Below, piece by piece: positions 21,838 to 26,422 of a DNA stretch of 32,000 bases. A program made the translations under genes and the position numbers. The stretch spans positions 1 to 32,000 of the forward strand of contig JAWBJZ010000008.1 in the NCBI GenBank assembly GCA_038832005.1. Direction: 5' to 3'. Position 1 is the first letter of the stretch. Each line of letters opens with the position of its first letter. The notes beneath the pieces were generated by a model. The model saw only the letters and a program-made list of their open reading frames with translations, ran no database searches and was not told the DNA's origin. The DNA comes from Candidatus Caldarchaeum sp. (GTDB taxonomy: Archaea > Thermoproteota > Nitrososphaeria_A > Caldarchaeales > Caldarchaeaceae).

Positions 21838-22311
21838 TTACGGGTCGTCCAAAGCTTCAAGAAAATCTTTAAAACTGTTCAGTTTTTGCGCGAGTTTCTC
21901 AGCGTCTATTCTCTCGCCATAGCTCGGGAGCTTGTACTTCTCATACCTGTGGTTGTGTCTCAGATAGCTCAGGGCATTTTCCTTCCGCGGGTCTACGCAT
22001 TCGCCGGCCACAATCCAATCCTCAATAGCGTTCTCCACAACCACTACGTGTAAACCGTCTATCGGGCCGCAAGCCTGTTTAACGCTACTTTCTACTTCGA
22101 GAGGGGTTTTGCCGTGCGCATCGACGACCACTATAACCTTGCCTCTCATTCTGGCGGCGGCGACCGCTCTGGCCGCCTTGCTGTCAAAAGGCCCTTTCAT
22201 TGATTTTATGGAGATGCCTAGCTGGTGGGGTTCAGCTTTTTTGATTTTCTTTATCAGGTTTCTAAAGAAGCCTTTTCCGTATGCGTCTTCGCAGAAAATA
22301 GTTTTGACCAT
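21838..22311 (-). CDS. Small Toprim-like / DUF4276-RloB-like protein, candidate nuclease partner of the upstream ATPase
   Basis: 157 aa. Its ATG lies 1 nt after the ATPase stop (TAA-C-ATG). It has three acidic beta-strand-end motifs in Toprim order: TIFCEDAYGKGFF, KVIVVVDAHGK and HVVVVENAIEDWIV. The assignment rests on motif pattern only. Confidence 0.45.
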   Translation of the reverse strand: MVKTIFCEDAYGKGFFRNLIKKIKKAEPHQLGISIKSMKGPFDSKAARAVAAARMRGKVIVVVDAHGKTPLEVESSVKQACGPIDGLHVVVVENAIEDWIVAGECVDPRKENALSYLRHNHRYEKYKLPSYGERIDAEKLAQKLNSFKDFLEALDDP

Positions 22312-22312
22312 G

Positions 22313-23671
22313 TTATTGTAGGCCGTATAGCCACATTTCGCTCGGCGTCAACCCCTTCTCCTTCATCCACCGCCTGACTTGCTCGAGGTTTTCCACACGC
22401 TTGACAACGCTGCCCTCAGGTGTCCTCTCCACCAGCAAAAGGCTTTCCAAACCAGCCACGTCAACAACAACAGGCGAATGAGTGGCAACCAAGCAGAGAA
22501 CACCCGAGTTCTTCAATTCATGCACAACATATTCTAAGACTTCGCTGTGAAGAGAGTTCTCCAGCTCGTCTATGCATAATACGGAGGGCTTGCTCTCAAC
22601 CGCCGTCAGGATGTGGAGAAGCTTGTAAAAGCCGTCGGGTATGCTCGGCGGATGTATCTCAGCCCCATTAAGCTTGTCTGTTACAGAGAGAAAAACGCGG
22701 CCGTCAGCTGTTGGCTTTATTTGGATTGCAAAATCAGGGAACAGGTTTTTTAGAGCATTTTCGATTCTTTCTGGTAATGCACCGGACAGAAACATCCGGG
22801 CGATCAGTAGGTTAAGCGTTTCACCTCTTTCTGAAGGGGTATCGGGAAAACCAGCCATTATACTAGGCTCTCGAACCTTACCCATGTCAGGATGGCGGAT
22901 GAATGATACGCCTCTGAAAAACCGCCTGATATTACGAGTTACATATTGGAACAGCGAATCGTTTTTATCTTCTAGGTAAGGGCTTATCAAGTTAATCCTT
23001 GTTGCACGAGTTCTCTGCCCATTGAGCGTGAATACCATTTCACGTGTTCTTATGTCAGTTAATGCGATTTTGTTTTCCACTGCGAGGTCTCTGTAAACTA
23101 TAGGTGCAATTATGTCAAAAGATGATAATGTCGGTAATATGCTTATTGGTATTTTTTCCAAGATAACCGTCTCTGTTCCCCTAGTTATATCTTCTATTTT
23201 GATTCCATGTCTTTTTACACGGTGTATAATGTATTCTCTGACGGTGTTTATGTGTTCTTCGATGAATTGCTTCTCCTTAACAACTCTGAGTATGTCTCCT
23301 TCTCTGCTGATCATTGCTACCCCGTGTAGGTTGATTGTTTCCTGGATAGGTCTGACCATTTGTTCTATATTGGTGAAGGCCACCTCATAGGTTGCCTTGT
23401 AGTTTTCTGGGCATTCGAATTCAAGCTCGAATGTTATGGGCTTTGTTTCGTCGTTGCCGTAGACGATGTTTCTGTAGGACCACCATTCGAGATGGGGTGC
23501 GTATGGTGATGTGATGTCGCCGAGGGCTTTCTTGAGGAACTTGAAGGCTTCCAGCAGGTTTGTTTTTCCTGAGGCGTTTGGGCCTACTAGGACGTTGAGG
23601 CCGTCGTTCAGCTCGACGACCGTGTCTTTGAAGGACTTCCAGTTGCGCAGCCGTATCCTCCTAAGCTTCAT
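22313..23671 (-). CDS. ABC/SMC-like ATPase of the AAA_21/AAA_15 (OLD/AbiL/AriA-like) type
   Basis: 452 aa. IRLRNWKSFKD...LNVLVGPNASGKTNLLEAF (Walker A), then a ~300-aa insert. This is followed by PDGFYKLLHILTAV (signature-like), VLCIDELENSLH (Walker B/D-loop) and LVATHSPVV (H-loop). It has its own TATA-like CACTTATATGTG and a GGAG upstream of the ATG. Confidence 0.8.
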   Translation of the reverse strand: MKLRRIRLRNWKSFKDTVVELNDGLNVLVGPNASGKTNLLEAFKFLKKALGDITSPYAPHLEWWSYRNIVYGNDETKPITFELEFECPENYKATYEVAFTNIEQMVRPIQETINLHGVAMISREGDILRVVKEKQFIEEHINTVREYIIHRVKRHGIKIEDITRGTETVILEKIPISILPTLSSFDIIAPIVYRDLAVENKIALTDIRTREMVFTLNGQRTRATRINLISPYLEDKNDSLFQYVTRNIRRFFRGVSFIRHPDMGKVREPSIMAGFPDTPSERGETLNLLIARMFLSGALPERIENALKNLFPDFAIQIKPTADGRVFLSVTDKLNGAEIHPPSIPDGFYKLLHILTAVESKPSVLCIDELENSLHSEVLEYVVHELKNSGVLCLVATHSPVVVDVAGLESLLLVERTPEGSVVKRVENLEQVRRWMKEKGLTPSEMWLYGLQ

Positions 23672-24057: not shown

Positions 24058-24537
24058 TTACCATGGTTTTTTCCGCCATGTGCGCACAGCTTCGTATAGG
24101 GTTGCCGCCGAGGAGGATGCTCCGAGCGCGATGACGTAGGGGTCTGGTGAGGTAAGGTGGGTGGCCAAGTAGAGTGTGGTGAAGGTTGTGAACAGGGCGG
24201 CGTAGAAAGCCATGCGGGGCAGCAGTTTTCCCCCAACCAGTATGAAGGACTGGAGAACAGATATGTCTACTTTCTCAGAAGCTGTGTAGGAGCCTTTATC
24301 GTCTTTCTGCAGCACGCCGAGCGAGTGAAGCTTCTCCAGATGGTGGTGGGCTACGCTGGGGCTTGAAAGCCCAAGACCCCTTTGAACATCCCTAACACCC
24401 ACAGGCCTTCCAGCCCTGATGACGTAGAGAAAAACGTCCAAGCTCCTGCCACGCAGCTCGGCTTCGACACGCCTCCTGTCCACACTCAAGCCTGTAAACA
24501 GCCGTGAACAGGGCTTAAAAACCTGAGCCCGTCTCAC
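24058..24537 (-). CDS. Membrane-anchored winged-helix (ArsR/MarR-like) protein
   Basis: 159 aa. The wHTH segment is LDVFLYVIRAGRPVGVRDVQRGLGLSSPSVAHHHLEKLHSLGVLQKD. Two C-terminal hydrophobic helices follow (LQSFILVGGKLLPRMAFYAALFTTFTTLYLA, YVIALGASSSAATLY). GTG start; start uncertain. Confidence 0.55.
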   Translation of the reverse strand: MRRAQVFKPCSRLFTGLSVDRRRVEAELRGRSLDVFLYVIRAGRPVGVRDVQRGLGLSSPSVAHHHLEKLHSLGVLQKDDKGSYTASEKVDISVLQSFILVGGKLLPRMAFYAALFTTFTTLYLATHLTSPDPYVIALGASSSAATLYEAVRTWRKKPW

Positions 24538-24835
24538 AAACGGAGGCGCATAAAAACTGCTTCTCCCTCGGCTATTCCCATTTAGACATCACCCTACTAC
24601 ATCTGCACCAAAGCACTCCCTTACTTTAATGATGTAGTATGGTTCAATGTCTTAAACCTATAGAACTATCTTCCGTTGCAAATCTTGTCGACGTTTTCAA
24701 CAAATATTACGCCACTCCTATCCTAAGTTGGCGGCTATCGAGATCCATGATCAATCTCTCAATCCTGCTTCGCCCTAAACGTTTCATGAATTATCCTATA
24801 CCTAAACTTTTCCAACACCTATCAAGCACCCGTCT

Positions 24836-25324
24836 TCAAGATATCCTTGGATCGCTTGTTACCAGAAATTCTCTGTTTGGATGCCCTTTTACTATATCTT
24901 TGATTGCTTTATTTTTAATCAGTTTGTTATCGAATGTGAGAAGACCACAGCATTCGGGGCTCGCTATTGAGAAGGCCACTATCACGCAGTCTATGAGTTC
25001 GAGCATCTTATCCCTATCCGCGAGATTCTGTAAGATATCTAAGAAATCGGTTAGGAATTCTCTCCTGAGATATGCGACCTCGAGTCCTCCAAACAAATTG
25101 ACGACCCCGATGTTCACCTCGTGCTTGACTAACTGTGCAACGGTCTCACAGATAACTATGAATGGTATCTTGATCTTCTGTGAAAGGCTCTTTATCACGC
25201 TATTTGCAGTAATTCGAGCGTAACGCTCGGTAGACATCTTCTTAGCTATTGAATCATATCTAAACGAGAGGTAGTTTATCAAGTAGTTTGTGTCAAGATA
25301 AAAATACTCCGGCCTGACACTCAT
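24836..25324 (-). CDS. PIN-domain nuclease (VapC-like toxin candidate)
   Basis: 162 aa. The four acidic PIN positions are in the expected order and spacing: FYLDTNYLI, FIVICETVAQL, LIDCVIVAFSIA, LLTFDNKL. Confidence 0.7.
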   Translation of the reverse strand: MSVRPEYFYLDTNYLINYLSFRYDSIAKKMSTERYARITANSVIKSLSQKIKIPFIVICETVAQLVKHEVNIGVVNLFGGLEVAYLRREFLTDFLDILQNLADRDKMLELIDCVIVAFSIASPECCGLLTFDNKLIKNKAIKDIVKGHPNREFLVTSDPRIS

Positions 25325-25337
25325 GTCCAGTAAGTGT

Positions 25338-25826
25338 TCAGACCGGCTGCTTCATAGAAAGAATCTTATAGACTTTCTCGAAGGACTCATAAGTTAGCCA
25401 GGGCTTCGACATCCTCAATATATCGTAGACCTCGTTCTCAGACATTCCTGGATATTTTTCCAAGACCATTAGTATGCTAGCAGCCGTTTCAAGCCATTTG
25501 GCATCCCTATCTTTAACAAGGCTGACGAAAGCGTCTGCATTGAATTCTGGGGGAAGACTCGCCTCCGGCAGAACTTTTTGCCGCGCAAGCTCATAGTAGT
25601 CATCTGCAAGCTCCTTGGAATATGGGCCATACATGTAGAGCGAGTAATCATACGCTAGGTCTAGACCAAGATACTTGGCTAGGAAGACATATTTCTGCAA
25701 GAGAAACCTCTTATCGAACTCCTTCTCAACGTTGAAGTCATAGCCTAACCTATCGTTTAGGAAACGAATGAAAGCAGCAAGAATACCCTTCCTCTCGGCT
25801 GAGAGATCTACAGAAGAGACCGTCAT
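25338..25826 (-). CDS. Panacea (DUF4065)/YwgA-like domain protein, candidate antitoxin
   Basis: The core FDKRFLLQKYVFLAKYLGLDLAYDYSLYMYGPYSKELADDYYEL matches the remembered DUF4065 pattern (LQK..Y......G......F....YGP.S..L). ATG 25826 is preferred (alternative GTG 25856). The stop lies 13 nt before the PIN gene's ATG. Confidence 0.45.
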   Translation of the reverse strand: MTVSSVDLSAERKGILAAFIRFLNDRLGYDFNVEKEFDKRFLLQKYVFLAKYLGLDLAYDYSLYMYGPYSKELADDYYELARQKVLPEASLPPEFNADAFVSLVKDRDAKWLETAASILMVLEKYPGMSENEVYDILRMSKPWLTYESFEKVYKILSMKQPV

Positions 25827-26185
25827 ACCCACTATCCCATAACACACACTAGCCACTGATTAATAAGTATTATACACTTTTACGCAAACTATGCATAGCT
25901 ATTATCATTTTTAGCCGAAAATGAATGAGGTATAGAGGGTCGTATGTCCTATTTCCACAAAGTTTCATGCGCCATATTTGATTGGGAGTCTCAACCGTCT
26001 TCTTCCACCTAGGGCTAAGACTGGTGTAGCTAGGAAAGACGATAGTTACGTTTTGAGCTGTGTGTTCAGCTAGCCGGAGACCCTACGCCTGTGGAAAGCA
26101 TAAAAGAGGTGATAAAAATGGCCCAAGTTAACAGAGCTGGCTAAACCGCTAAAATAATTGCTGGAGGGGCTTTGACTAGCGTTAT

Positions 26186-26422
26186 ATGGAGGCTTACAAC
26201 GCTTTTTCAGACGTGAAAACAGCTAGGTTATTCGGCTATTTCCTCATGTTCTTCGCCGCCGGCGGCGGGGTTTTCTACACAGCATGGTGGGCTGGGTTAA
26301 TCGGTTTCCTCAACCCCGAAGATGCTGTCAAGCTGGTCGCCCTGCTCGTGGCGCTCTTCATTTTCCTCGTAATCGGCTTCGTCGGGTACGTCATGGCGTT
26401 CACAAAGCCTCCTGCATCATAA
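26186..26422 (+). CDS. Small two-TM membrane protein
   Basis: 78 aa. LFGYFLMFFAAGGGVFYTAWWAGLIGF and LVALLVALFIFLVIGFVGYVMAF; codon usage looks like the rest of the window. Its 3' 148 nt overlap the tail of the convergent 889-aa ORF. Confidence 0.5.
   Translation: MEAYNAFSDVKTARLFGYFLMFFAAGGGVFYTAWWAGLIGFLNPEDAVKLVALLVALFIFLVIGFVGYVMAFTKPPAS

Follow-up and report, generated by a model that had tools for sequence, protein, structure and literature searches.

A candidate toxin–antitoxin cassette in Candidatus Caldarchaeum joining a divergent Panacea-like protein to a VapC-like PIN nuclease

In a 32,000-nt stretch (the whole of which is called the window here) of the genome of Candidatus Caldarchaeum sp., a hot-spring archaeon, two minus-strand genes encode a small globular protein and, directly downstream of it, a PIN-domain protein of 162 amino acids (aa). 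By sequence comparison and predicted structure, the upstream protein belongs, as a divergent member, to the superfamily that holds the Panacea antitoxins and the C-terminal domain of DarG (DarG-C), and its partner is a VapC-like nuclease. A first-pass annotation of the window had proposed that a Panacea protein stands in for the customary VapB antitoxin at this locus. Homology, fold and synteny support this combination, and we consider it likely that the pair acts as a type II-style toxin–antitoxin system in which the Panacea-like domain would neutralise the PIN toxin directly. The cassette is an insertion with remnants of an insertion sequence (IS) at both ends, the pair recurs in distant relatives, and in other relatives the putative toxin gene has decayed beside an intact partner.

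Family and fold of the two proteins

The upstream protein could not be named from the common family collections. A Pfam scan at E ≤ 1 gave no match to SocA_Panacea (PF13274, DUF4065; gathering score 25.7 bits), and a six-frame search of the whole genome with this model found nothing. Scans of NCBIfam and PHROGs did not supply a usable name either, yielding only noise and a weak match to DarG in NCBIfam, and a literature search for YwgA returned nothing relevant. SocA_Panacea was reached by one of the 13 close archaeal homologues, at E = 0.1, and none of 71 diverse sequences, taken as the best-scoring representatives of the family, matched PF13274 at E ≤ 0.01. When the Protein Data Bank (PDB) was searched with the family profile, the sole match was a designed protein at E 0.11, which we take as chance, and a Foldseek search of viral structures (BFVD) gave no significant match. 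A profile built from the 13 homologues matched 2,571 clusters (50 % identity) at E ≤ 1e-3.

The relationship to Panacea proteins emerges from more sensitive comparisons. In hhalign, the upstream family aligned with a set of 23 Panacea proteins, all Pfam-positive and drawn from archaea of the host's own phylum, at a probability of 95–96 % and an E-value of approximately 1e-8 to 1e-9, as against a probability of 0.5 % for the reversed control. Intermediate sequences bridge the two groups: an archaeal, Pfam-positive Panacea protein (L010) scored 48 bits on the upstream family's hidden Markov model (HMM) and 15 Pfam-positive Lachnospiraceae proteins scored 43–60 bits, one of which bears the UniRef name "Antitoxin SocA-like Panacea domain". 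Two PADLOC models are common to the upstream family and the Pfam-positive Panacea proteins, one for DarG, matched in its C-terminal half, and one for PDC-M19A, a candidate system in PADLOC, matched in its N-terminal part. The DarG match of the upstream protein is confined to the C-terminal part of the model, at positions ~176–234 of 329–338.

The predicted structure agrees with this assignment. For the AlphaFold2 model of the upstream protein, which has a predicted local distance difference test score (pLDDT) of 87, the top PDB match in Foldseek was 7yk3, chains B and D, with a probability of 1.0, a template modelling (TM) score of 0.57 and ~188 aligned columns. These chains are the C-terminal DarT-binding domain of Mycobacterium tuberculosis DarG, the sole clear solved relative. 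Residues G77, P78, Y79 and S80 are invariant in all 13 close homologues; across the 71-sequence alignment, G77 remains invariant and P78, Y79 and S80 are each at least 90 % conserved. The GPY of the family lines up with the GPV or GPF of Panacea proteins, the third residue being Y and not V, and GPV, which follows the beta-hairpin, is the Panacea signature motif that is reported as critical for neutralisation (Kurata et al. 2022, PMC8832971). Taken together, the hhalign result, the intermediate sequences, the shared PADLOC models, the 7yk3 fold and the GPY/GPV motif identify the upstream protein, at the level of sequence and model, as a divergent member of the Panacea/DarG-C superfamily. The DUF4065/Panacea core recognised in the first-pass annotation thus holds at the superfamily level, although PF13274 itself gives no match, and the profile–profile comparison ties the family to Panacea antitoxins instead of to an unrelated family.

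The partner was more readily classified. The 162-aa protein matches PF01850 (PIN) with 24.0 bits (E 6.6e-5, profile positions 2–116 of 120), marginally above the gathering cut-off of 23.6 bits. The four acidic PIN positions that had been read from the motifs LDTN, CETV, IDCV and TFDN are indeed present (D11, E60, D112 and D132) and are kept in all PIN homologues that span them. Among the top ~40 PDB matches of the AlphaFold2 model (pLDDT 88) in Foldseek, nearly all are VapC or other PIN-domain proteins, with probabilities of ~1.0 and source organisms that include Shigella, Mycobacterium, Rickettsia and Pyrococcus. Their TM scores range from 0.55 to 0.71, with maxima of 0.60 when normalised by the query and 0.71 when normalised by the target. 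Sequence and predicted fold both point to a VapC-like PIN nuclease.

The layout of the locus largely agrees with the first-pass annotation, which had described two co-directional genes 13 nt apart in an AT-rich locus with long AT-rich spacers and without a canonical VapB. This narrow gap suggests a single transcript, and the gaps between the upstream gene and its partner in relatives are similarly tight (+17, −8, −4 and +19 nt). The spacer 3' of the pair (24538–24835) has 298 bp and a GC content of 0.419, and the one 5' of it (25857–26185) has 329 bp and a GC content of 0.416, compared with 0.513 for the window; further copies of both were sought in the same 76-contig genome assembly, where each is single-copy. 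Pfam finds no AbrB, ribbon–helix–helix (RHH), PhD or MerR-type VapB domain in the upstream protein, and no other small open reading frame (ORF) lies between or beside the two genes. The upstream ORF begins at GTG 25856, and its residues 52–88 read LLQKYVFLAKYLGLDLAYDYSLYMYGPYSKELADDYY, the peptide quoted in the first-pass annotation. However, its true start is probably ATG 25826, which gives 162 aa, because all close homologues begin at the position of Met11 in the homologue alignment and because a TATA-like element, approximately 11–18 nt 5' of the GTG codon, is too near for GTG to be transcribed. The computed isoelectric points (pI) are 5.0 for the upstream protein and 8.3 for the PIN protein. 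A 194-aa ORF antisense to the PIN gene (24639–25223, plus strand) is most likely spurious.

Gene linkage, toxin decay and exchange of partners

Both genes occur together in 2 of 41 related genomes, namely in the window genome and in one from another family of the same taxonomic order, where they are adjacent and 19 nt apart. The same PIN subfamily also follows a Panacea-like gene in Ca. Wolframiiraptor (L031), in Ca. Terraquivivens (L032) and in two unclassified archaea (L044, L045), so the pair is syntenic in distant relatives, one of the points on which the first-pass annotation had made its proposal depend. Where relatives carry the upstream gene intact at 160 aa (65–70 % identity), its PIN partner is often defective. 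Three assemblies (L131, L132, L134) have a frameshift in the PIN gene at approximately residue 117, four loci (L133, L135–L137) retain about 70 residues of it and one (L138) lacks it, with the upstream gene intact in every case. This decay fits a toxin–antitoxin logic, which predicts that the toxin is lost and the partner kept.

A survey of 77 genome loci, suggested by the first-pass annotation as a search for other toxins, showed that members of the upstream family also pair with MazF/PemK. This was found in two loci (L062, L074), each with a winged-helix gene upstream. The MazF/PemK gene matches PF02452 at E 1.3e-22, and the genes are separated by 0–6 nt. Both loci hold three genes in the order winged-helix (HTH_34/PadR), Panacea-like and MazF/PemK, the first in a Micrarchaeota genome (L062, 777–1991) and the second in an unclassified archaeal metagenome-assembled genome (L074, 2537–3833). 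Other tight partners are several small proteins without assigned function. When the ~170-aa partners found in Thermoplasmata and other archaea (L043, L050, L055, L075, L076) were compared with the PIN family in hhalign, no match was significant.

In 20 bacterial loci, the partner is an HD-domain protein of ~470 aa, in either gene order. This protein (HD + HD_assoc_2) is tightly linked to the Panacea-like member, often with overlapping genes, in Planctomycetota, Dehalococcoidia, Bacillota and Lachnospiraceae. The HD gene lies downstream in L064, L069–L071, L078, L079, L084 and L090, and upstream in L083, L086, L091, L093, L094 and L101–L106. The HD-enzyme/Panacea pair may be an uncharacterised toxin–antitoxin or defence module.

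Two further loci were observed during the survey. At L128 (2432–6340), a 302-aa protein carries a Panacea-like domain at its N terminus and precedes a 206-aa protein without an assigned family, and this pair stands beside a TOPRIM ATPase (OLD-like) with a UvrD helicase, a Gabija-like arrangement that looks like a defence island. At L130 (97–1060), the family member P0023 and a PIN gene converge with an overlap of 14 nt, which is atypical of an operonic toxin–antitoxin pair.

The insertion and its surroundings

The pair lies within a segment of low GC content (0.428) that is absent from two genomes of the same genus. In one of them (G058, 95–99 % identical), the flanks are 96–99 % identical to those of the window and abut with 18 nt between them, leaving an empty site from which ~1.63 kb is missing. 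In the other (G090, ~75 % identical), the helix–turn–helix (HTH) gene and the small membrane-protein gene that flank the cassette are directly adjacent. Since both genomes show an empty site, sequence comparison indicates that the empty state is ancestral and that the cassette is an insertion. Its left boundary falls between 24526 and 24558. The coordinates of the genes, the insert and the associated elements are summarized in Table 1.

Table 1. Features of the putative Panacea-like/PIN cassette and its insert in the window.
Feature	Position	Strand	Remarks
Panacea-like / DarG-C-terminal-like putative antitoxin	25338–25856	−	listed ORF of 172 aa, GTG 25856
VapC-like PIN-domain putative toxin	24836–25324	−	162 aa, ATG start
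Intergenic spacer between upstream gene and PIN gene	25325–25337	−	13 nt, read from the sequence
Probable archaeal promoter region	25857–25880	−	TATA-like TATAATAC at ~25874–25867, read from the sequence
Inserted segment carrying the pair	24549–26182	.	~1.63 kb, absent from two same-genus genomes
IS6-family (DDE_Tnp_IS240) remnant, 3' part of the transposase gene, 3' of PIN gene	24740–24811	−	~79 % identity to G058 copies
IS terminal-sequence remnant, facing outward from the cassette	26065–26137	+	~81 % identical to at least 7 copies in G058

Remnants of IS6-family elements were found towards both ends of the insert. The one 3' of the PIN gene resembles multi-copy G058 sequences that lie inside a 219-aa transposase ORF, which matches PF13610 at 4.6e-12. 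The other ends sharply at 26137, the same base at which at least 7 G058 copies end, several of them at contig ends. Target-site duplications and terminal inverted repeats of the insert were looked for and none were found. An origin of the ~70-bp repeats as integron attC sites or as miniature inverted-repeat transposable elements was also considered and rejected, the repeats being a fragment of the IS6 transposase gene and an IS end. G058 holds many copies of these IS6-family (DDE_Tnp_IS240) elements, whose ends coincide with contig breaks (834–1493 of L117, which is G058:C22; L119–L122). The window's own assembly shows none beyond the two remnants, probably because the repeats were left unassembled. 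An eight-codon micro-ORF with a Shine–Dalgarno-like GAGGTGAT at 26106–26144 lies within the IS-end remnant, and its sequence is ~81 % conserved in at least 7 IS termini of G058. This comparison makes an IS terminus a better explanation for it than a leader peptide.

In the empty-site genomes, the HTH gene and a 78-aa membrane-protein gene are divergent, with start codons only 12 nt apart (L110, 5103–5122). In the window, GTG replaces ATG as the start codon of the HTH gene, which also differs in its first codons (24526–24560; the other junction lies at 26183–26190). The promoters of both genes may have changed, as each now has insert-derived DNA upstream. Between 21800 and 24065 of the window lie a HEC-01/AbiL-like ATPase gene (22313–23671), the gene of its 157-aa partner (21838–22311) and a 95-aa membrane-protein gene. 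These three are present in G058 and G090 and missing in G010, G026 and G066 of the same genus, where the distance from the end of a radical-SAM gene to the HTH gene is ~280 bp. From this pattern of presence and absence, it follows that the apparent island consists of at least two independent indels.

Proposed mechanism, rival readings and known systems

The evidence is best accommodated by a type II-style direct neutralisation, which we regard as probable. A promoter upstream of 25826, within the AT-rich spacer, would drive co-transcription of the two genes. The PIN protein would act as a VapC-like, Mg2+-dependent ribonuclease toxin, and the acidic, stand-alone Panacea/DarG-C-like domain would bind this basic toxin and occlude its active site, so replacing the usual VapB. 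The cassette would have been acquired by horizontal transfer, as the ~1.63-kb segment with IS6 remnants at both ends, and would have come to lie with a membrane-anchored HTH gene on one side and the small membrane-protein gene on the other, beside the HEC-01/AbiL-like ATPase–Toprim module. Binding, neutralisation, ribonuclease toxicity and co-transcription are what we infer; direct binding in particular would parallel two known cases, the C-terminal domain of DarG, which binds DarT, and stand-alone PanA, which acts directly (Ernits et al. 2023, PMC10440598).

Several points weigh against this mechanism. The SocA_Panacea model does not detect the upstream protein, the Pfam score of the PIN protein barely exceeds its cut-off, and the asymmetry between acidic and basic pI is inconsistent among homologues. 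Many family members adjoin housekeeping-looking genes, which are probably unrelated to them, and P0023 (166 aa) has its Pfam-positive PIN neighbour in convergent orientation. The Panacea domain in many PanA proteins has been argued to be a sensor and not the neutraliser, and 78 % of PanAT pairs are toxin-first, whereas the window pair is antitoxin-first (Ernits et al. 2023, PMC10440598).

The sensor role proposed by Ernits et al. (2023, PMC10440598) leads to the best of the alternatives, a virus-defence (abortive infection) module instead of plain addiction, in which the Panacea-like protein would sense an infection cue and release the PIN nuclease. The surroundings speak for it, as the pair adjoins a HEC-01/AbiL/PARIS-like ATPase and Toprim pair and one family member (L128) adjoins the Gabija-like OLD-TOPRIM and UvrD pair, and so do the matches of the upstream family to PADLOC DarG and the candidate PDC-M19A. 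However, neighbourhood alone cannot tell defence from addiction, and the pattern of toxin erosion suits any toxin–antitoxin logic. This reading also overlaps with direct neutralisation and is compatible with it; as a separate explanation, we consider it unlikely.

It is less probable still that the locus is no toxin–antitoxin system at all, with the PIN protein a non-toxic RNA-processing nuclease and the winged-helix-like upstream protein its regulator or chaperone. Parts of the upstream model do resemble the winged helix of Fur, PerR and Zur (46–63 aligned columns, probability 0.2–0.85), metabolic genes adjoin many family members, and housekeeping nucleases contain PIN domains as well. Against this stand the patchy distribution among relatives (2 of 41), the recent insertion with its IS remnants, and the repeated decay of the PIN gene beside an intact partner. 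Furthermore, the fold matches of the PIN protein are VapC toxins and not processing enzymes of the Fcf1 or Nob1 type, and the family pairs with MazF too.

A SocA-like (type VI) mechanism, in which the Panacea-like protein would be a proteolytic adaptor handing the toxin to a protease, as SocA with its Panacea domain does in Caulobacter (Kurata et al. 2022, PMC8832971), is very improbable because the genome (90 % complete) has no canonical ClpP, only one weak ClpP-family match (22.6 bits, in a 486-aa ORF), and DarG-C, which is the nearest solved structure, achieves neutralisation through direct binding, just as direct complexes were found for the tested PanAT pairs (Kurata et al. 2022, PMC8832971).

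With direct neutralisation as the preferred reading, the pair can be compared with described systems. In PanAT systems, Panacea/DUF4065 (PF13274) antitoxins are combined with PanT toxins of many kinds (Kurata et al. 2022, PMC8832971; Ernits et al. 2023, PMC10440598). The known partners of PanA antitoxins belong to dozens of toxin families. Their likeness to the window pair lies in a stand-alone domain of ~160 aa with a conserved QK...GP[VYF] core, a two-gene cassette with a toxin-like partner, the swapping of partners (PIN, MazF and others) and a patchy, mobile distribution. Unlike PanA, the window protein escapes the Pfam model that defines the group and has GPY in place of GPV; its host is archaeal and thermophilic, and its gene precedes that of the toxin. 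With VapBC, the pair shares the VapC PIN fold with four acidic residues and a putative antitoxin gene placed upstream at a very short distance. However, a VapB of the AbrB, RHH, PhD or MerR type is missing, and the window protein is a folded, globular domain of ~160 aa, whereas VapB combines a DNA-binding domain with a disordered tail.

Among solved structures, the DarG C-terminal domain (PDB 7yk3) matches the window protein best over its whole length, and the HMM matches to DarG (positions ~165–329) are consistent, but the window protein has neither a macrodomain nor a DarT (ADP-ribosyltransferase) partner, its putative toxin being a PIN nuclease. The type VI system SocAB of Caulobacter is alike in the Panacea domain of SocA and differs in that the window locus lacks a SocB-like toxin and the genome a canonical ClpP.

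The substitution of a Panacea-like protein for VapB is therefore supported by homology, fold and synteny, but it is less new than the first-pass annotation had implied. A bacterial combination of PanA with a PIN-like toxin cluster, pT43/T38, predicted only, is already contained in Dataset S2 of Kurata et al. (2022, PMC8832971), where its HHpred matches include VapC proteins and PAE2754. What is new is modest, namely a thermophilic archaeal example with the antitoxin gene first, belonging to a subfamily that the Pfam model does not detect, and the pair implies neither a new mechanism nor a new system class. The natural evidence for this example is unusually clean, consisting of the empty site, the remnants of IS elements and the erosion of the toxin.

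A wider reading, which we put forward tentatively and hold to be a serious possibility, is that the Pfam-negative branch of 2,571 clusters forms a large, hyperpromiscuous clade of antitoxins or sensors in archaea and bacteria. It may be partnered by PINs of the VapC-like type, by MazF, by small hydrophobic proteins and, in many bacteria, by the ~470-aa HD-domain (deoxynucleoside triphosphatase-like) enzymes. If this is true, earlier HMM-based censuses of PanAT missed much archaeal diversity. The family profile can be used to annotate thousands of "hypothetical" proteins, and the empty site, the decay of the toxin with retention of the antitoxin and the swapping of partners offer comparative guides to experiments. 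The thermostable Panacea–PIN pair lends itself to structural studies of the way in which a single fold neutralises toxins that are unrelated. Overall, the locus would extend the Panacea antitoxin idea to thermophilic archaea and to a VapC-type toxin, by way of a subfamily that standard models do not see.

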